DNA of 64,000 nucleotides from Chitinophaga pinensis (GTDB lineage Bacteria; Bacteroidota; Bacteroidia; Chitinophagales; CAMDFR01): positions 2,969-66,968 of the forward strand of contig CAMDFR010000013.1 of NCBI GenBank assembly GCA_945897725.1, in the 5' to 3' direction. The first letter of the stretch is position 1. The number at the start of each line of letters is the position of its first letter. This document shows, piece by piece, positions 4,336 to 58,129 of this stretch. A model generated the notes under the pieces. That model was given only the letters and a program-made list of their open reading frames with translations. It had not been told where the DNA came from and did not search any database. The translations under genes and the position numbers were made by a program.

Positions 4336-5754
4336 TTATTTTCCTCTGCCTTGCAACAAAGTGATCATGGTATAAATCATGATTTTAATATCCATTAGAA
4401 TGGAGATGTTTTCGATATAGATGATGTCGAATTTTAAACGATCTATCATTTGTGAAACATTTTCTGCATAGCCATATTTCACCATGCCCAACGAAGTAAT
4501 ACCGGGCTTTACACGCTGAATATGTCTGTAGTGCGGGGCTTTCTCTATGATCTGATCCACATAAAATTTTCTTTCAGGTCTAGGTCCAACCAAACTCATC
4601 TCACCTTTCAATACATTGAAAAATTGAGGTATCTCGTCCAATCTCCATTTGCGCATCACGCGACCCCAACTAGTAATGCGCGTATCATTTTTTGAAGATA
4701 AGGCCGGACCATTAGTTTCAGCATCTGTACGCATGGAGCGAAATTTGATAATCTGAAATGGTCTTCCAAAAAGTCCGATTCTTTCTTGTGTATAAAAAAT
4801 ATTTCCCTTGGATGATAAAAGTACTCTAATGCCCGTATATAAATAGACTGGTAATAAAAGAATAATGAAAAGAGAGGATAATAGAATATCTAAAATACGT
4901 TTCAAATTCTTTTCCCAACGTGGCATCAAATCTGGATAAATTTCTATCAATGCCGTACCCAACACATTATTCATCTTTGCATAACCAGTCAAAATATCAT
5001 ACATGTCTGGAATAATTTTTAATACCACCTCGCTATTGGCTAATGTATTAATGATAGAATTTATTTGATCATGTTCACTCGTTTCAATGGCGATGATCAC
5101 TTCTTCTATTTCCTTTTCGTCGATGATTTGTTTGATATCATCTACACTACCTAATTGAGGAATATAGGTCTTCAAACCATTGGCAGACTTATTGTTTACT
5201 TCTACAAAACCAAGAAATTTATTTCCAACTGATTTAGATTTTTCTGTCAATTCCTCATACAACATCACTGCTTTATGATTACTTCCCACAATTAGCGTAT
5301 TAAAATAAACGCTTCCTTTTTTTAGTTGCTTCTTAGAAAAATGCAATACCGTATTTCTGAAAAATAAGGTTAATCCAAGATGTACACTGAATAAAAAGGA
5401 AATAGAAATATAATAGCTCCTGTAATCTTTTACAATATCATCCAATATCAAACCAAAGAAAATAACAATGCAACCCACGATAGCGGTGAAGACTGTTTTT
5501 AAATTTTCTTTCAACCTAGATTTTCGATAGATATTGGTATAACTTCCTGTGATAAAATAAATATTCATCCAGAATAAACTCACCAATAATACTCCCAAAA
5601 TATACTTCGAATCTTGAAGCAGATCTCCTAGTTGAAAAGAGACTTGCTCAATAACTTTCTTTCTAAAAATGTATAATAAGGTCCATGCAATAGCAGCAAC
5701 TATATAGTCAAAAAAGGCATATAAATAAAGGACTTTACTATTCTTACTATTCAT
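4336..5754 (-). CDS. Polyprenyl-phosphate sugar phosphotransferase (WbaP/EpsB-like initiating 'bacterial sugar transferase')
   Basis: N-terminal multi-TM region. The C-terminal catalytic domain has the hallmark motifs KRILDILLSS..., IIKFRSMRTDAE, WRLDEIPQFFNVLKGEMSLVGPRPE. Confidence 0.9.
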   Translation of the reverse strand: MNSKNSKVLYLYAFFDYIVAAIAWTLLYIFRKKVIEQVSFQLGDLLQDSKYILGVLLVSLFWMNIYFITGSYTNIYRKSRLKENLKTVFTAIVGCIVIFFGLILDDIVKDYRSYYISISFLFSVHLGLTLFFRNTVLHFSKKQLKKGSVYFNTLIVGSNHKAVMLYEELTEKSKSVGNKFLGFVEVNNKSANGLKTYIPQLGSVDDIKQIIDEKEIEEVIIAIETSEHDQINSIINTLANSEVVLKIIPDMYDILTGYAKMNNVLGTALIEIYPDLMPRWEKNLKRILDILLSSLFIILLLPVYLYTGIRVLLSSKGNIFYTQERIGLFGRPFQIIKFRSMRTDAETNGPALSSKNDTRITSWGRVMRKWRLDEIPQFFNVLKGEMSLVGPRPERKFYVDQIIEKAPHYRHIQRVKPGITSLGMVKYGYAENVSQMIDRLKFDIIYIENISILMDIKIMIYTMITLLQGRGK

Positions 5755-5757
5755 ACA

Positions 5758-6591
5758 CTAATAGTATACCACTTTAAAATTATCAATGTATATCTGACCT
5801 GTAGTGGTGCTGTCCCCGTTATCTGTGTTTATAAAAAAACTAAAGACTTCACTTTGCGAACGACTTAAATCTGGTGTCAACTCTATATACATTTTACTCC
5901 ATGTATCTTTACCATTCACCGTTACTTCTGTTGTTCTTTGAGTAAGACCCGAAACGACAGATTCATAGCCAACCCTGAAAGCAATATTCGATTTATAATC
6001 CAGTTCTATATATGCTACAGAACCTGTAGGAATCAGAACACTATTGGTTTTCGTTTCAACAGCACTTAACGGTGCCACAGTCATCAACCCACTATTGCTT
6101 CCTTCAAAAACATTTACATCACTTATAATCGTCATATTGGAAATAAAACTATTCGAAGTTTCAAATCCTTCTTTGATAATAAATTTAGTGATGTCAAAAT
6201 ATTTGAAGATGGGAGAAAGTTTAATTTCTTGGGTATCTCCTAATGTCACAGCATAATTTTCTGTTTGATAAAAGGGGTATCTATTTCTCTGTCCTGAAAT
6301 ACCTTTATTCTTAATGCCTGCGGTAATACTCACTGTGTAATTACCTGGTTCGGCTAAGACTGGAATTCTGGCAGGTAATTCGTAAACTCCTAAGTTTTGG
6401 CTACCCATCTCTACCCATATTTCGTCAATTTTAGAAGATGAACTTCCTTGTGTAACAGGATCGGCTTGCACCATGGTAGAATCTATCACAATATAAAAGG
6501 GAATTCCATTGTTGGGGAGCTTTTTACCACAAGCACTAGCTACGGTAAGGATAATGGTAAAGAGAAGTGAAAAGTAAATTGCTTTTTTCAT
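5758..6591 (-). CDS. Hypothetical lipoprotein
   Basis: The internal Met at 6591 gives MKKAIYFSLLFTIILTVASAC-GKK, a signal peptide plus lipobox Cys. The longer ORF start at 6663 adds a non-signal extension. Sits 3 nt upstream of the sugar transferase on the same strand. Confidence 0.6.
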   Translation of the reverse strand: MKKAIYFSLLFTIILTVASACGKKLPNNGIPFYIVIDSTMVQADPVTQGSSSSKIDEIWVEMGSQNLGVYELPARIPVLAEPGNYTVSITAGIKNKGISGQRNRYPFYQTENYAVTLGDTQEIKLSPIFKYFDITKFIIKEGFETSNSFISNMTIISDVNVFEGSNSGLMTVAPLSAVETKTNSVLIPTGSVAYIELDYKSNIAFRVGYESVVSGLTQRTTEVTVNGKDTWSKMYIELTPDLSRSQSEVFSFFINTDNGDSTTTGQIYIDNFKVVYY

Positions 6592-6690
6592 ATAATTGAG
6601 AAACAAAGATAACGAAGCTTTTAATTTTTTATTATGCTTATCGTTCATTTGGCTTTTTTGCAAAAAAGCAGATACAGAAAAAGCGCTCCA

Positions 6691-7665
6691 CTAGCCTCTT
6701 TCTCCTGTAATTTTGTATAAAATTTGGTAGGCTACTTTCATAGCATTATGTCCATCAGCTACGGTTACAGGCGTTTCTGTATTTGTTTCTATGGCGTTCA
6801 GGAATAATTCTAGCTCCATCTTAATGGCATTCACTTCACTTACTTCGGGCATTTCAAATTGTACATATTTTGTTTCTCCTTCAGAGGTATTGACTTCCAT
6901 AAAGTTCATATCGCTATCTGGCTTGTCTTTCGACAAACTGATAATCTCCGTTTTCTTTTCCAAAAAGTCGATGCCGATATAGGCATCTGGTTGAAATATC
7001 CTGGTCTTACGCATGTTTTTCATCGATATGCGACTGGCTGTAATATTAGCGACACATCCATTGTCAAATTCTATCCTAGCATTCGCAATGTCTGGCGATC
7101 TAGAGATGATAGGAACACCACTGGCACTTATTTTTTTGACATTTGCTTTCACTAAACTCAATATGATATCTATATCATGTATCATTAAGTCTAATATCAC
7201 AGAAACATCTGTTCCTCTTGGATTGAACTGAGCAAGACGATGGGTCTCAATAAACATTGGATTCATAGGCCTATCTTTCAGCGCAAGAAAAGCCGGATTG
7301 AATCTTTCTACATGGCCCACTTGCGCTTTGATATTACCTTCTGCTATCAGGTTCATCAACTTTTTTGATTCCTCCATGGTGTTGACCAATGGCTTTTCGA
7401 TAAAAATATGCTTACCGGCAGAAACGGCTTTTTTCGCCAATTCAAAATGTGTGATGGTAGGCGTTACGATGTCCACGGCATCGACATTCTCAAACAACTC
7501 ATGTAATTCAAGATAACGCTTCACCCCAAATTTTTCCATTACGAGGTTCGCATTAGTATCATCTGGGTCGAAAAAACCAACTAACTCCCAGCCCTCTATC
7601 TCAAGAAGAAGCTTGATATGTATTTTGCCTAAATGACCAGCACCAAGTACGCCAATTCGTTTCAT
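6691..7665 (-). CDS. Gfo/Idh/MocA-family NAD(P)-dependent sugar oxidoreductase
   Basis: The start at 7665 gives MKRIGVLGAGHLGKIH, a Rossmann GxGxxG at the N-terminus. An EKP motif (IFIEKPL) is typical of the family. The track start at 7731 adds 22 aa upstream of the Rossmann fold. Confidence 0.85.
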   Translation of the reverse strand: MKRIGVLGAGHLGKIHIKLLLEIEGWELVGFFDPDDTNANLVMEKFGVKRYLELHELFENVDAVDIVTPTITHFELAKKAVSAGKHIFIEKPLVNTMEESKKLMNLIAEGNIKAQVGHVERFNPAFLALKDRPMNPMFIETHRLAQFNPRGTDVSVILDLMIHDIDIILSLVKANVKKISASGVPIISRSPDIANARIEFDNGCVANITASRISMKNMRKTRIFQPDAYIGIDFLEKKTEIISLSKDKPDSDMNFMEVNTSEGETKYVQFEMPEVSEVNAIKMELELFLNAIETNTETPVTVADGHNAMKVAYQILYKITGERG

Positions 7666-53269: not shown

Positions 53270-53833
53270 TTAGCGTTTATATTTTAAGGGGTCAGGGGGT
53301 AGCTCATATTTTAAATCGTTCCAATGGTCGTCTGACCAAAAGAATTGGATAGACTTGCCACCTTCTGTCTCATAAAAAGTATAAAATGCTTTCTTCTCTA
53401 CCTCACTATAATAGGTACTTACCATCACATCTCCCTTCGGATTTTCAATGGGCTGCTCTGGTAAGTTTATTTTAAGATCTGTCCAGCTACCATCCTCCCA
53501 AACGTATTGTATACTTCTTCCCGTTTTGGTGTCCCAAACAATGTAGAAAGCACGTTTCATCATGGTGTCAAAGTATACGTCAAACATCACTTTCCCTTCA
53601 AGTACCCCAGGCAATGGAGGCGATGGAATGTTAAAGGCCATCGTATCCCAACGAAGACTATCGCTCCAATAATATTGTAGATTGGCTCCAGTGCGCGTAT
53701 CCCAAACTAGATAATAGGCTTGTCTGTATGCAGGATCATAATAAGTAATCATTTTTATATTATCACTTTGTGCATGGCTAGACTTTGTCATAAAAGTGAA
53801 AGCAATCAGAAGGAAGAAAATTATTTTTTTCAT
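53270..53833 (-). CDS. Small secreted protein made of three tandem repeats of about 48 aa each (function unknown)
   Basis: Signal peptide MKKIIFFLLIAFTFMTKSSHA from ATG 53833. Three units match Y(Y/F)......A(F/Y)Y.V(W/Y)(D/E)T..G.(S/N)(I/L)Q(Y/F).W.D..W.D(L/M)...(L/I)P..P. Confidence 0.65.
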   Translation of the reverse strand: MKKIIFFLLIAFTFMTKSSHAQSDNIKMITYYDPAYRQAYYLVWDTRTGANLQYYWSDSLRWDTMAFNIPSPPLPGVLEGKVMFDVYFDTMMKRAFYIVWDTKTGRSIQYVWEDGSWTDLKINLPEQPIENPKGDVMVSTYYSEVEKKAFYTFYETEGGKSIQFFWSDDHWNDLKYELPPDPLKYKR

Positions 53834-53943
53834 ATCAAAAATTGAAACCATTAAAGTGATTATGTCAACGAATTTAGAACTTTAAATTGACTTCATTCAA
53901 AATAAATCGACTCTTTATCTAGAGATGCCTCTTAAAATACAAA

Positions 53944-54136: not shown

Positions 54137-54727
54137 ATGAATTCAGAAATGATCCAAGAAGCAAGCCTTCATGAGGACAAAAAATTTGAACATCTAGATT
54201 TTAGTGAACAAAAGCTAATCAATAAAGAATTTGTGGCTTGCGATTTTGAGGATTGTAATTTTTCTAAAAGTGATTTTTCTTCTTCTGAGTTTATGGATTG
54301 TAATTTTTCGAATTGCAATTTGTCTCTCGCAGTATTCAATCATGTGGGATTAAAAAATGTACATTTTACAACCTGTAAGTTGATGGGGATTGATTTCAGT
54401 AAATGCAATGCTTTTTTATTTTCGATAGGATGCATCAATTGTCAACTCGACTATTCTATATTCTTTCAAAAGAAGATGAAGAAGACAATCTTTAAAGACT
54501 GTTCGCTAAAGGAGGTGGACTTTTCAGAAGTAGATTTGTCGGGTGCTGGTTTTCAAAATTGTGATTTATCTGGTACTGCCTTTAATAGGAGTATATTGGA
54601 AAAGGCTGATTTTAGAACAGCCTATCAATATAATATCGATCCTTCTTTAAATAAAATGAAACAAGCAAAGTTTGCAGCGACTGGTTTAGAAGGGCTCTTG
54701 TCGAAATTCCAACTCGATATCGATTAA
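54137..54727 (+). CDS. Pentapeptide repeat protein (Qnr/MfpA-sized, 196 aa)
   Basis: Continuous A(D/N)LxF-type pentads: CDFEDCNFSKSDFSSSEFMDCNFSNCNLSLAVFNHVGLKNVHFTTCKLMGIDFSKCN..., then a second block after a short break. This matches the two-domain quadrilateral beta-helix layout. Confidence 0.85.
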   Translation: MNSEMIQEASLHEDKKFEHLDFSEQKLINKEFVACDFEDCNFSKSDFSSSEFMDCNFSNCNLSLAVFNHVGLKNVHFTTCKLMGIDFSKCNAFLFSIGCINCQLDYSIFFQKKMKKTIFKDCSLKEVDFSEVDLSGAGFQNCDLSGTAFNRSILEKADFRTAYQYNIDPSLNKMKQAKFAATGLEGLLSKFQLDID

Positions 54728-54827: not shown

Positions 54828-56030
54828 ATGTTATTCAGTAATTATTTACTCTTTATCTATATTGTTAGTTTCGTTGTTATCTACACGATGGCAAGGGCAT
54901 GTACAAAAAGTGTCCTGATTAGAAATGGATTGATTGCTATTGCCAATGTCTTATTATTGCTGAATCTGGTAAAGGAGCATAGCATTATCGTATTGGCTAT
55001 ATTGAGTTTGATTGTATATGTATTGGGTAGATTATTGCAGACAAAAAATTCAAAAGCATTATTGTCGTTCTCGCTCAGTTTGATTATTTTTTTGTTCATT
55101 GTACGCAATTATAGCGCTGTACAATCCTTGCTCTCGCATACCTTTCTATCCTTTGTAAATGCACCAATTTTATCTGTTCAGAAACTTGGACTATCCTATA
55201 TTTTATTTCGTTTTGTTCATTGGTTGATTGAATCATTCAAGCAAAAAATACAGAAGCCTAATTTCCTCACTTTTGTCAACTATATTTTATTCTTCCCTTC
55301 CATTTTAGCAGGTCCAATTGATACCTACAATAATTTTCAATATTGGATCGGAAAGTCAAATGCTTCCTATAGCAGATCGCTTTTCTTTGCGGGGATTTCC
55401 CGTATTTTTATCGGAGCACTTAAAACATTAGGATTGGTGCCATTGATCATTCATTATGCAACGGACTATAGTGTTTTTCCTGCGTCTATTCAGCCCTTGA
55501 TGGCCCTGTTTATGAGTTTGATTTGTTACTCTTTTTATATCTATCTAGATTTTTCTGGCTATAGTGATATTGCTATTGGTACGGCCTATTTGATCGGGAT
55601 TAAAACGCCAGAAAATTTTAATAATCCTTATCGTTCACAAAATTTATCTGAGTTTTGGAAGCGTTGGCATATCACCTTCTCAAGCTTTTTGCAGCGCTAT
55701 GTTTTTAAGCCCTTCATTCAATTGTTTAATATACTATTGCCATCCAAACATCGTTTGCTCATCACTATCTTAAGCTATCTAGCCACCTTCGTTATTTGCG
55801 GACTTTGGCATGGAGCCACTATCAATTTTGTGTATTGGGGTTTATGGCATGGCGTTGGTCTTTCTATCAATAAAATTTGGTTGATAAAAATGAAGCCACA
55901 TGTCGCCTTTAGTGCAAGCAAAACATATCACATCCTAAGTATTGTGCTAACCTTTTTGTATATAAGCATGGGATGGTTGTTTTTTCATTATTCATCAGCA
56001 CAACTCGTAAACATCTTTAAATTATTTTAA
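54828..56030 (+). CDS. MBOAT family membrane-bound O-acyltransferase, DltB-sized (400 aa)
   Basis: Polytopic protein with the MBOAT core NLSEFWKRWHITFSSFLQRYVF and the catalytic-His region CGLWHGATINFVYWGLWHG. Its stop overlaps the next gene's start (TAATG). Confidence 0.85.
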   Translation: MLFSNYLLFIYIVSFVVIYTMARACTKSVLIRNGLIAIANVLLLLNLVKEHSIIVLAILSLIVYVLGRLLQTKNSKALLSFSLSLIIFLFIVRNYSAVQSLLSHTFLSFVNAPILSVQKLGLSYILFRFVHWLIESFKQKIQKPNFLTFVNYILFFPSILAGPIDTYNNFQYWIGKSNASYSRSLFFAGISRIFIGALKTLGLVPLIIHYATDYSVFPASIQPLMALFMSLICYSFYIYLDFSGYSDIAIGTAYLIGIKTPENFNNPYRSQNLSEFWKRWHITFSSFLQRYVFKPFIQLFNILLPSKHRLLITILSYLATFVICGLWHGATINFVYWGLWHGVGLSINKIWLIKMKPHVAFSASKTYHILSIVLTFLYISMGWLFFHYSSAQLVNIFKLF

Positions 56031-57163
56031 TGAAGATTTTGCAATACATCTATAAAACAAGCACCCTAGCAAGCAATGGCATCTTTCTGTTGTTGATGGC
56101 GCTAATATTGATGTTGATAGGTCCTTTTCTTATTCCTGCTTATAAAGCGCAACATTTTAAGCAGCAGATTTTTACACTCAATGGTCTAGCCATTAAGTAT
56201 GATGATGATCCAGCAGTGTCAGATTTTATTTATTCCATAAAAAGCAATCATGGTTATTTATGTATGGGTACCTCAGAATCGAGTGATCTGGAGGGCGGCA
56301 ATTATTATAATTTTCTAAATGCTGATACCATGCTCCATAGTCGTTTCTCAATTTTGGCAGGGGCTGGAAGGACTTGTGGCATCTATATTCCATTGTTGTT
56401 GCAACATAGAGATGAAGTAGATTCAATGCAAATTATTTATCTCATCAATCCTGCCTATTGGCGGACAGATTTATGTGAAGTAAATATGGAGTATTGGAAT
56501 CGTTATACGAATAATGCGATGATTCATCATTTGAAATTAACTGAGAATGAAAATCAAGAATATTTCAAACCTGTGCAGGCCTATTTAACAAAACTGAATC
56601 TATTTCAACGAACAGTATTTAGCATAGACTATGAATTGCGAAGCCTTAGAAAATCCTATTTTCAAGATTTTAGGTATTTGCTGAATGATAAAGATTATAA
56701 AAAGAATTTAAGTTTTATACCTACACAAAAAGCACCTCTTTCTACTTATCCTAGCTTCGGACAAATAGATGCTGTGGCCATTGACACGAGTTGGAATTTG
56801 CTTCGTACTTTTCACAATCAAGCATGGTTTAAACCCATTCAAAAAGATAGTAAATATCGGTATGAAGAATTGAGTTCCTTTATTGAATTATGCAAGCATC
56901 TTGGTATCAAAGCCACCTTTGTAGTTGGTCCTTACAATGGACGTTTTATAACAAAGTATGATAAAAAATCTTTGGCAGCTTATGAAGAAACTTGTCAGCG
57001 AATTAAAACATTATTGATTAACAAGAAAGCTGATTTTATAGATGCCACCGATATTTCCTTTGTGGCTGGGGCATTCAACGATCATCAACATCATTCTAGT
57101 TATGGTGCTTATCTTCTTTATCTAAAAATAAAATCTCATATCAATGAAAGTCATGCTGATTAA
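56030..57163 (+). CDS. DltD-like (SGNH/GDSL-type) extracytoplasmic acyl transferase partner of the MBOAT
   Basis: N-terminal TM anchor (GIFLLLMALILMLIGPFLIP). Candidate nucleophile block CMGTSESSDL (compare GSSE in DltD). C-terminal Asp/His block AFNDHQHHSSYGAY. The 377-aa length and the gene order match DltB-DltD. Homology is inferred from motifs only. Confidence 0.5.
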   Translation: MKILQYIYKTSTLASNGIFLLLMALILMLIGPFLIPAYKAQHFKQQIFTLNGLAIKYDDDPAVSDFIYSIKSNHGYLCMGTSESSDLEGGNYYNFLNADTMLHSRFSILAGAGRTCGIYIPLLLQHRDEVDSMQIIYLINPAYWRTDLCEVNMEYWNRYTNNAMIHHLKLTENENQEYFKPVQAYLTKLNLFQRTVFSIDYELRSLRKSYFQDFRYLLNDKDYKKNLSFIPTQKAPLSTYPSFGQIDAVAIDTSWNLLRTFHNQAWFKPIQKDSKYRYEELSSFIELCKHLGIKATFVVGPYNGRFITKYDKKSLAAYEETCQRIKTLLINKKADFIDATDISFVAGAFNDHQHHSSYGAYLLYLKIKSHINESHAD

Positions 57164-57164
57164 A

Positions 57165-57257
57165 ATGCTTGGTAAAATTATGTTGATTGTCTTGCTAGTT
57201 TTCTTGCTGATGTATGTGAGTACAGAGGATATTCCTTATTTGTATGCAGGATTCTAG
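57165..57257 (+). CDS. 30-aa transmembrane microprotein with a DltX-like C-terminal Tyr hexapeptide (candidate acyl shuttle)
   Basis: The ATG lies 1 nt after the stop of 56030..57163. It encodes MLGKIMLIVLLVFLLMYVSTEDIPYLYAGF*, one hydrophobic helix followed by a short acidic tail ending Y-L-Y-A-G-F at the extreme C-terminus. It is below the 60-aa cutoff of the ORF track. Confidence 0.4.
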   Translation: MLGKIMLIVLLVFLLMYVSTEDIPYLYAGF

Positions 57258-57362
57258 CGAGGAGGCTTATAGCCTGAGCAATAGTAGCGACATCCTTTTT
57301 TGATTGTCTTTTTCAAAAAAGATATAGCGAATAGTGCGACCACGCCTAGCGTGGGCAGGCCA
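57256..57362 (+). repeat. GC-rich multi-hairpin intergenic element, copy G
   Basis: AGGCT-tat-AGCCT, then GTAGCGAC-ATC-C-TTTTTTGA-ttgtcttt-TCAAAAAA-GAT-ATAGCGAATAG, then CCACGC-cta-GCGTGG. Fills the gap between the convergent micro-ORF and MBL-fold genes. Confidence 0.65.
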
Positions 57363-57373
57363 TCATCAAAAAA

Positions 57374-58129
57374 TCAAAGTGCATGAGGTTGGTAATCGTT
57401 CATGAGAACAAATCGTGGATCATTTATAGCATGCGTTTCTTGATACTTTGTCTTGGCAATTTTTAATACCAATCCTTTACCAGGTTTTTGCTCATCATGT
57501 GTATTCATTATTTTTTTTGCTTCTAGTTGATGAGCCAATTTGAGTGCGGCCTCGTAGCCTGGATTCACCAGTCCGCCTAGAAAAAATGGAAGTTTAAAAT
57601 ACGTGAACGTGGTGATGAGCAAGCGAATATTGAATTCTTTGAGCATCGTCAATTGTGTCACTGAAGGTTTAAAACCATGTGCCGCATAAAAGATGGCCTC
57701 TTTATCATGGGCAATAATAATGGCATCATAAAAAGAATGTATCCATTTTTCGGATTTCAAACTCATGATTTTGAAATCTCTGAAAGTATTCCATTTGTTG
57801 GCTTCTAGCAAGTTTAACTCTGCTGCATTCCATTCTTTTTTAATGCGCTTTGACGTGTTAGATGCGGCGAAAATAGGCGTGGAGTGCTGCAGTTTTTTTA
57901 AAGTTTCGGTATGACAATGATCGCTGTAGGGTTGGGATACAATGACGGCATCGAAGCTGCTTAAGTCCTCTACGGGCATTGGTTTGGTGGCATGCCATTG
58001 CTCATTGAACCATCGAAATCCATCTATCTCTGTGCCCACTAACCAAGGATCCAAAACGAATGTTGTGTCATTCCAATGAAGCATCCACGAATTGTCCATA
58101 TTGAGTCTTTGAATAGATAGATTTGTCAT
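57374..58129 (-). CDS. MBL-fold metallo-hydrolase family protein
   Basis: N-terminal beta-strand pattern and a degenerate metal motif VIVSQPYSDHCH, plus a later HG/HD (AAHGF..., NTHDEQ). This is a weak family-level call. Confidence 0.6.
   Translation of the reverse strand: MTNLSIQRLNMDNSWMLHWNDTTFVLDPWLVGTEIDGFRWFNEQWHATKPMPVEDLSSFDAVIVSQPYSDHCHTETLKKLQHSTPIFAASNTSKRIKKEWNAAELNLLEANKWNTFRDFKIMSLKSEKWIHSFYDAIIIAHDKEAIFYAAHGFKPSVTQLTMLKEFNIRLLITTFTYFKLPFFLGGLVNPGYEAALKLAHQLEAKKIMNTHDEQKPGKGLVLKIAKTKYQETHAINDPRFVLMNDYQPHAL

Follow-up and report, generated by a model that had tools for sequence, protein, structure and literature searches.

Does the very short open reading frame (ORF) that follows an MBOAT gene and a DltD-like gene in a Bacteroidota genome encode the acyl shuttle of this enzyme pair? 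The question is raised by a stretch of 64,000 nucleotides (nt) from Chitinophaga pinensis (contig CAMDFR010000013.1), which we call the window. In the DltB/DltX/DltD relay, the acyl shuttle is the microprotein DltX (Schultz, Snow and Walker 2023, via PMC12148441; PMC13653941 also describes it). Its FxYxxF motif is described as acting through an acyl-Tyr, a role that has been shown for PatA and is a model for DltX (PMC12148441). We suggest that the microprotein encoded in the window is probably a DltX-type acyl-Tyr shuttle, which would complete a self-contained three-gene envelope acylation cassette (54828..57257). The features of the cassette are as follows.

54828..56030, + strand: DltB-type MBOAT, 400 amino acids (aa), with the C-terminus ...VNIFKLF and no Tyr motif
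56030..57163, + strand: DltD-fold SGNH protein, 377 aa, with an N-terminal membrane-anchor helix and a catalytic triad
57144..57257, + strand: microprotein gene, 37 aa from its most likely start (MKVMLIKMLGKIMLIVLLVFLLMYVSTEDIPYLYAGF), with a basic N-terminus, one transmembrane helix and an acidic 12-residue tail
57237..57254, + strand: C-terminal hexapeptide Y32-L-Y34-A-G-F37 of the microprotein, followed by TAG
57243-57245, + strand: codon of Tyr34 of the microprotein, the proposed acyl acceptor
57252-57254, + strand: codon of the terminal Phe37 of the microprotein

The micro-ORF as a gene

The frame was described in an earlier note as a 30-codon ORF (MLGKIMLIVLLVFLLMYVSTEDIPYLYAGF) that opens at ATG 57165, one A past the TAA of the DltD-like gene (57161-57163), and ends in YLYAGF before the TAG at 57255-57257. 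These coordinates are correct, though the start is not the one that orthologues use. The same frame is already open at ATG 57144, which gives 37 aa (MKVMLIKMLGK...) and a 20-nt overlap, in a different frame, with the end of the DltD-like gene. A pattern scan with one genome per species gave 61 orthologous loci, with DltD-like identities of 31-77% and host metagenome-assembled genomes (MAGs) labelled Flavobacteriales, Bacteroidales, Saprospiraceae and others. The micro-ORF is present at all 61. At 60 of these loci a frame ending in [LIV]YxxF and a stop codon lies just 3' of the DltD-like stop, mostly at exactly 94 nt, like in the window. An ATG that yields a product of 36-39 aa is found in all 60 tabulated loci and in the window. 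This conserved start, the equivalent of ATG 57144, lies within the DltD-like gene, and the overlap is mostly 20 or 26 nt long, or 4 nt in the form of ATGA; the internal ATG 57165 of the window is not conserved in the orthologous loci. From this comparison, 57144 is most likely the start codon of a 37-aa product.

The public record is in line with the longer form. Exact forms of 37-39 aa are found in a public collection of 15 billion proteins, from which the 30-aa form is absent. In the MAG GCA_947479265.1, which has the same gene order (locus L062), the 37-aa gene has been called, the 20-nt overlap included. The expectation that gene callers would easily miss the ORF is not borne out, since the 37-aa form is on record and is unnamed rather than missed: its public entries are essentially without a name, one being an 'uncharacterized integral membrane protein'. 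An exhaustive phmmer search with the 37-aa query against 1.84 billion representatives returned 3 matches, the query being too short to gauge the size of the family.

The peptide alignment comprises 60 loci and the window, and 58 of its 61 peptides are distinct sequences. Only two residues are invariant, the Tyr at position -4 (TAC in 37, TAT in 24) and the Phe at position -1 (TTT in 42, TTC in 19). Position -5 is L/I/V and position -8 is I/V in 61/61, while position -9 is D/E in 60/61. The first residue of the hexapeptide, at position -6, is Y in 27, C in 25, T in 6 and F in 3 peptides, and half of the family is non-aromatic here. Of the hexapeptide aromatic-x-Y-x-x-F that had been given for DltX, the Tyr and the terminal Phe stand in this family, whereas the first residue is not a conserved aromatic. 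The transmembrane helix sequence is poorly conserved. Synonymous codons also alternate at Ile (ATT/ATC/ATA) and Asp (GAC/GAT), the mean pairwise nucleotide differences at codon positions 1, 2 and 3 are 0.51, 0.35 and 0.66, and the median ratio of nonsynonymous to synonymous divergence (dN/dS) is 0.39 at a dS of ~1.6. This wobble, the codon-position bias and the dN/dS are characteristic of a translated gene, and the micro-ORF is under purifying selection. The comparison of orthologous loci that had been called for has come out in favor of the gene, as the frame is kept 61/61 with synonymous wobble at both the Tyr (TAC/TAT) and the Phe (TTT/TTC).

Could the frame nevertheless be open by chance, or owe its conservation to a non-coding element (a terminator, for instance, or the DltD-like gene's 3' end) without being translated? 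The motif does occur by chance, in that [LIV]YxxF ends 3 of the 985 stop-to-stop frames of at least 30 codons in the window. Furthermore, the 116-nt spacer (57258-57373) between the micro-ORF and the next gene, which encodes a protein of metallo-beta-lactamase (MBL) fold, contains two small hairpins, CUUUUUUGA…UCAAAAAAG and CCACGC-cua-GCGUGG. These may be bidirectional terminators; the GC hairpin occurs once in the window, and a scan for consensus terminators and promoters gave nothing specific 3' of the micro-ORF. The fold of this spacer is, however, not better than that of shuffled sequence (z = -1.1). In addition, the frame is open 61/61, conservation is at the level of the peptide with wobble at the third position and synonymous alternation at Tyr, Phe, Ile and Asp, and both the start position and the length (36-39 aa) are conserved. 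As the loci are not near-identical copies (58 distinct peptides, median dS ~1.6), an explanation by chance is effectively refuted, and we give it next to no weight. Since 61/61 loci keep the micro-ORF with a coding-type substitution pattern, it is beyond chance, and it is almost certainly a real gene that is functionally linked to its neighbors.

Some individual loci are worth recording. At L057, from a reindeer-rumen Bacteroidales, the DltD-like gene is frameshifted (L057:4700-5200), which points to a pseudogene or to an error in the assembly. This locus was considered as the sole one without a micro-ORF, which was rejected, as the ORF (…SEGDISCLYTTF) is intact there. Two records with labels from other phyla, L024 (Lentimonas sp., Verrucomicrobiota) and L059 (Comamonadaceae), both carry a Bacteroidota-type cassette, which suggests mis-binned contigs or horizontal transfer.

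The two partner enzymes

The micro-ORF is strictly linked to the genes of two enzymes. The MBOAT (58 loci) and the DltD-like gene are the only neighbors that are kept beside it across loci. In most loci the MBOAT gene reaches 1 or 4 nt into the start of the DltD-like gene, and in the window the stop of the former and the start of the latter share one base (TAATG). Because overlaps are found at both junctions, i.e., MBOAT/DltD-like and DltD-like/micro-ORF, a translationally coupled operon is suggested. The micro-ORF is the final gene of its transcription unit, since the MBL-fold gene downstream (57374..58129) is convergent. The catalytic residues assigned to the two enzymes are the following.

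55809-55811, + strand: codon of the putative catalytic His328 of the MBOAT
56273-56275, + strand: codon of Ser82 of the DltD-fold protein, in GTSES (the protein has GTSESS)
57080-57082, + strand: codon of Asp351 of the DltD-fold protein
57089-57091, + strand: codon of His354 of the DltD-fold protein

The MBOAT of the window matches the Pfam MBOAT family (2.8e-30) and the DltB model TIGR04091 (206 bits, 1e-60), the latter with residues 3-386 against positions 3-376 of 380. DltB structures (6BUG/8JEM, 1e-29) are its only sequence matches in the PDB. The histidines of its WHG and RWH motifs align to the active-site region of DltB, whose residues are named in PMC11035591; WHG is found at the DltB His336 region, and His281 sits in RWHITFS. 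Both His281 and His328 are invariant across 18 MBOAT orthologues. The score is short of the TIGR04091 equivalog cutoff (206 vs 375 bits), and by its sequence the 400-aa protein is DltB-like and no DltB equivalog.

The 377-aa protein matches Pfam DltD with 27.5 bits (cutoff 22.7), in a match confined to its C-terminal quarter, and misses the TIGR04092 equivalog cutoff (19 vs 150 bits). Its profile finds DltD 6O93 in the PDB, a weak match at E 0.024. Its AlphaFold2 (AF2) model has a predicted local distance difference test (pLDDT) score of 92.7 and starts with a helix at residues 2-34. The 12 best PDB fold matches of this model are all DltD (7DXM, 3BMA, 6PFX, 6O93), with E-values of 6e-10 to 9e-8 and template modeling (TM) scores of 0.53-0.58, while generic SGNH esterases and PatB rank behind DltD with E-values of at least 1e-4 (PatB 8e-4). 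In an alignment of 31 homologues, G80-T81-S82-E83, D351 and H354 are invariant, which gives an intact SGNH triad. The DltD fold of the 377-aa protein is thus accompanied by an anchor helix and a complete triad. Searches detect 157 homologues of this protein, all of them from Bacteroidota MAGs or metagenomes, and some sources call them DltD. No natural fusion of DltD and the microprotein is seen among the longer DltD-like homologues. The pairing of an MBOAT with a DltD-like protein, as originally described, holds for both partners (TIGR04091 at 1e-60 over the full length, DltD fold, intact Ser/Asp/His triad).

These enzyme types raise the possibility of a genuine D-alanylation Dlt pathway, with genes for DltA/DltC at other places in the genome and the microprotein as a diverged but true DltX orthologue that was acquired with dltB/dltD from Gram-positives. 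This explanation shares the shuttle mechanism with the one we favor, from which donor, acceptor and ancestry alone set it apart. It would account for an MBOAT that matches the DltB model and structures only, for a partner that ranks DltD above other SGNH folds, for the sources that name homologues DltD, and for the sub-threshold DltX matches in register that are given in the next section. On the other hand, DltA/DltC are unlinked at 61/61 loci (in a screen of low sensitivity), both enzymes are far under the equivalog cutoffs quoted above, and the hidden Markov model (HMM) of the microprotein family does not score genuine DltX. Teichoic acid synthesis is not known in Bacteroidota. We consider D-alanylation unlikely here. 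Of the Dlt assignment in the earlier note, the Dlt-like machinery stands, while a D-alanylation pathway is not demonstrated, with DltA/DltC unlinked.

A probable shuttle tail in trans

In the set of 62 copies used for charge and hydropathy, each microprotein has one strongly hydrophobic stretch, with a net charge of +2 to +5 on its N-side and of -1 to -4 on its C-side (62/62). The acidic C-side comprises ~12-16 residues, and the best 17-residue stretch has a mean Kyte-Doolittle value of at least 1.86 (median 2.84). At 36-39 aa, these proteins are within the size of single-pass membrane microproteins (up to about 50 aa). The positive-inside rule, taken alone, predicts an N-in/C-out orientation with a periplasmic tail.

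The ends of the partner MBOATs are complementary to this tail. The terminal Tyr motif is absent from 57/57 listed partner MBOATs, the window's included, which have ~400 aa where complete. The absence of a terminal Tyr, first noted for the MBOAT of the window (...VNIFKLF) and there taken to leave the micro-ORF as the sole candidate shuttle, extends to all 57. The longer MBOATs examined carry the motif themselves. For this fused side we used six MBOATs of 460-506 aa, all ending in F[IL]YxxF.

L014, second MBOAT: 472 aa, C-terminus ...QFIYFQF
Proteus MBOAT: 472 aa, C-terminus ...GFIYASF
Deinococcus MBOAT: 472 aa, C-terminus ...PFLYFQF
Bartonella MBOAT: 460 aa, C-terminus ...PFIYFNF
Parabacteroides distasonis MBOAT: 506 aa, C-terminus ...QPFIYFQF
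Bacteroides finegoldii MBOAT: 495 aa, C-terminus ...QPFIYFQF

The window MBOAT aligns to the fused MBOAT of L014 only up to residue 390 of the 472 of the latter. Judged from this alignment, the missing ~80 residues are the two helices and the motif described for PatA, which has two extra C-terminal helices plus the motif (PMC12148441). Five of the six fused MBOATs were screened for an accompanying small Tyr-motif ORF, and none of the five has one. In the scan of the fused-MBOAT loci of Proteus, Deinococcus and Bartonella, no comparable small Tyr-motif ORF was found; the few matches there are short frames, on the opposite strand or within the MBOAT gene, that have no hydrophobic helix. In S. 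aureus and E. casseliflavus, the genuine DltB (404 and 399 aa, respectively) has a motif-free end and DltX in trans. All three forms share the same C-terminal layout, i.e., a helix end, 7-8 residues and the hexapeptide. Since the partner MBOATs are without the motif that longer MBOATs carry, the tail appears to replace a catalytic element.

For the acylation of Tyr34, the direction of transfer and the formation of a complex, we infer the following relay. The MBOAT would draw on a cytoplasmic donor for an acyl or aminoacyl group and move this group through the membrane funnel, via His328, to the hydroxyl of Tyr34. The helix of the microprotein would lie in the inner membrane in the N-in/C-out orientation, with the acidic tail ...EDIPYLYAGF on the periplasmic face. 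The acyl-Tyr tail would then swing over to the SGNH domain in the periplasm, Ser82 (aided by Asp351 and His354) would accept the group there, and the DltD-fold protein would pass it from Ser82 to an envelope acceptor, which is esterified as a result. The microprotein would in this way supply in trans what PatA/AlgI-type MBOATs hold in cis, namely two helices and the terminal FxYxxF. The precedents for such a relay are DltB/DltX/DltD and PatA/PatB (PMC12148441; PMC13653941). The idea of a three-part DltB/DltD/DltX-type machine in Bacteroidota, already put forward in the earlier note, gains support from the 61/61 loci, the enzyme types and the complementarity of split and fused forms.

Conservation and linkage show function and not chemistry, however, and the microprotein could be a real subunit that only lends structure, helps assembly or regulates the funnel. 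In that case, the acyl group would pass directly from the MBOAT to the SGNH protein or to the acceptor, and the Tyr/Phe tail would be a docking plug. The variable first position of the motif agrees with this, and PMC11035591, which we cite for the mechanism, raises a regulatory role of the DltD/DltX helices on DltB. Yet the sole invariant residues are the Tyr and the terminal Phe, the ones needed for shuttling in DltX/PatA (PMC12148441), whereas the transmembrane helix is poorly conserved, and the partner MBOATs are without the motif carried by longer MBOATs. We regard a structural or regulatory role as quite unlikely.

The following points weigh against the proposed acyl-Tyr shuttle of the DltX type. 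No DltA/DltC-type gene recurs near the cassette at the 61 loci. In signature screens of low sensitivity, a PROSITE-style AMP-binding signature was found at 1/61 loci and none in the 64-kb window, and there were no recurrent PP-binding signatures at the 61 loci and none in the window. The gene order is B-D-X vs dltXABCD, and position -6 of the motif is Cys/Thr in half of the family vs a conserved Phe in DltX/PatA. All examples of the split cassette come from MAGs, metagenomes or 'uncultured' records. Finally, the window microprotein has no Pfam or NCBIfam match at E up to 10, and the family HMM gives 0-2 bits against two genuine DltX (S. aureus, E. casseliflavus). The relaxed search with the DltX profile thus failed for the window copy, but not for all of its relatives: Pfam DltX (PF12459) matches 7/33 family members with 10-15 bits (best E 0.0018), missing the gathering threshold of 25. 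It is the most frequent weak match and is in perfect C-terminal register (microprotein 13-37 vs profile 19-43 of 43). A profile of the microprotein against PDB chains returned chance matches to transmembrane helices and no DltX chain. At the level of sequence, homology of the microprotein to DltX is unproven.

The origin of the microprotein bears on a more specific version of the shuttle proposal, in which a carrier-protein-independent relay esterifies a non-teichoic envelope component in the periplasm of Gram-negative cells and the microprotein arose independently of Firmicute DltX, e.g., by fission of a fused-MBOAT tail. A fission origin is hinted at because the best score of the family HMM, though weak (9 bits), is against the terminal helix of a Bacteroides fused MBOAT. 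We hold this version to be possible and still doubtful. If it is true, a split design with the shuttle in trans has arisen repeatedly in evolution.

Split and fused architectures can also meet within one genome. In a Flavobacteriales MAG (L014:2796-7637), a 402-aa MBOAT, the DltD-like gene and a micro-ORF that ends at 5228 make up the split cassette. The gene of the fused MBOAT (5288..6706) begins 60 nt past this micro-ORF, and then comes a 326-aa ORF without a Pfam match, such that two acylation systems of split and fused architecture adjoin each other. No further small Tyr-motif ORF was found in L014 and the other split-cassette regions. Cultured gut Bacteroidales have the fused design (P. 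distasonis and B. finegoldii; L073:2210-5071, L074:1296-5065), and the gene of their 495-506 aa MBOAT is immediately preceded by one or two GDSL/SGNH genes. The 61/61 split-cassette loci of the one-genome-per-species scan come from uncultured lineages. An orphan gene annotated as dltB (388 aa) lies beside a TetR regulator on the large Bacillus mycoides plasmid NZ_CP036103.1 (L066:3665-4831) and on ~40 similar plasmids of the Bacillus cereus group. There is no Tyr-motif small ORF within 500 nt of the orphan gene of L066, and no dltA/C/D/X is listed nearby in its gene table, which is incomplete.

The remaining neighbors in the window are unrelated housekeeping genes and genes for cargo of the type IX secretion system (T9SS). 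Directly 5' of the MBOAT and on the same strand is a gene for a pentapeptide-repeat protein (54137-54727, + strand; Pfam Pentapeptide_4, 1.9e-27). It is probably unrelated, because it is not kept beside the cassette in other loci. A 193-aa ORF (53270-53851, - strand), whose start resembles a signal peptide, contains three internal repeats of ~55 aa (AYYLVWDTRTGANLQYYWSD, AFYIVWDTKTGRSIQYVWED, AFYTFYETEGGKSIQFFWSD) and is without a Pfam family in the public gene call.

Comparison with known acyl-Tyr systems

According to a mechanistic paper of 2025 (PMC12148441), a DltX-like microprotein is peculiar to Dlt, and the other bacterial MBOAT/SGNH pathways have the motif fused to the MBOAT instead. 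The full-text literature gave no paper that links DltX or an MBOAT/SGNH microprotein to Bacteroidota, with a mention in the 2023 primary DltX paper being possible. What appears new here is that a known relay logic is found in another phylum, with its genes in a different order, without a dedicated donor system and with a relaxed motif. The split microprotein design would thereby be seen outside Gram-positive bacteria and without linkage to DltA/DltC, in a cassette that is found in at least 61 species-level Bacteroidota genomes from sources such as lakes, oceans and the rumen. Our findings offer a name and a testable role for an unnamed 37-aa gene that has no naming-model match. They also suggest a rule for annotation: a microprotein partner is to be expected close to any MBOAT of ~400 aa that lacks a terminal xYxxF. 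In addition, the cassette points to an ester modification of the Bacteroidota envelope, whose donor and acceptor could be searched for with a minimal three-gene construct.

The closest known system is DltX. Both are microproteins of less than 50 aa in which a basic N-terminus leads into a single transmembrane helix, both end, after a tail of 7-8 residues, in a hexapeptide that has Tyr at -4 and Phe at -1, and both are genetically coupled to a motif-free DltB-type MBOAT of ~400 aa and a membrane-anchored DltD-fold SGNH protein. The DltX tails end in ...NNFIYNEF (S. aureus), ...GAFIYNEF (E. casseliflavus) and FLYFGF (S. thermophilus), and the microprotein of the window in ...IPYLYAGF. There are clear differences, too. 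DltX has 45-50 aa, whereas the Bacteroidota microprotein has 36-39 aa. DltX is encoded first (X-A-B-C-D) in an operon with dltA/dltC, whereas the Bacteroidota microprotein is encoded last (B-D-X), overlapping the DltD-like gene, in a cassette without linked dltA/dltC. The first motif residue is a conserved F in DltX and Y/C/T/F in the Bacteroidota family, which has its own D-I at -9/-8. DltX is found in Gram-positives, and the host phylum of the Bacteroidota microprotein is Gram-negative. Membership in the DltX family is not assignable; on all the evidence, the microprotein would work like DltX.

The fused systems of PatA/PatB and AlgI/WssH type share the proposed route from the MBOAT His to a C-terminal acyl-Tyr, the SGNH Ser and the polymer. 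PatA/PatB moreover operate in a Gram-negative periplasm from a locus without a dedicated carrier protein, and the FIYANF of N. gonorrhoeae PatA is nearly identical to the YIYANF ending of many members of the microprotein family. In PatA-type proteins, however, the motif is fused on two extra helices (460-506 aa), whereas in the Bacteroidota cassette it is on a separate gene. Unlike PatB, the SGNH partner in Bacteroidota has the DltD fold, and the MBOAT matches DltB alone among solved structures. In OatA-type AT3-SGNH acetyltransferases, the AT3 membrane domain is unrelated to MBOAT, the Tyr is in an internal loop, and the whole system is one polypeptide. Even so, they have in common with the proposed relay the transfer from an acyl-Tyr on an extracytoplasmic peptide to an SGNH serine (PMC12148441).

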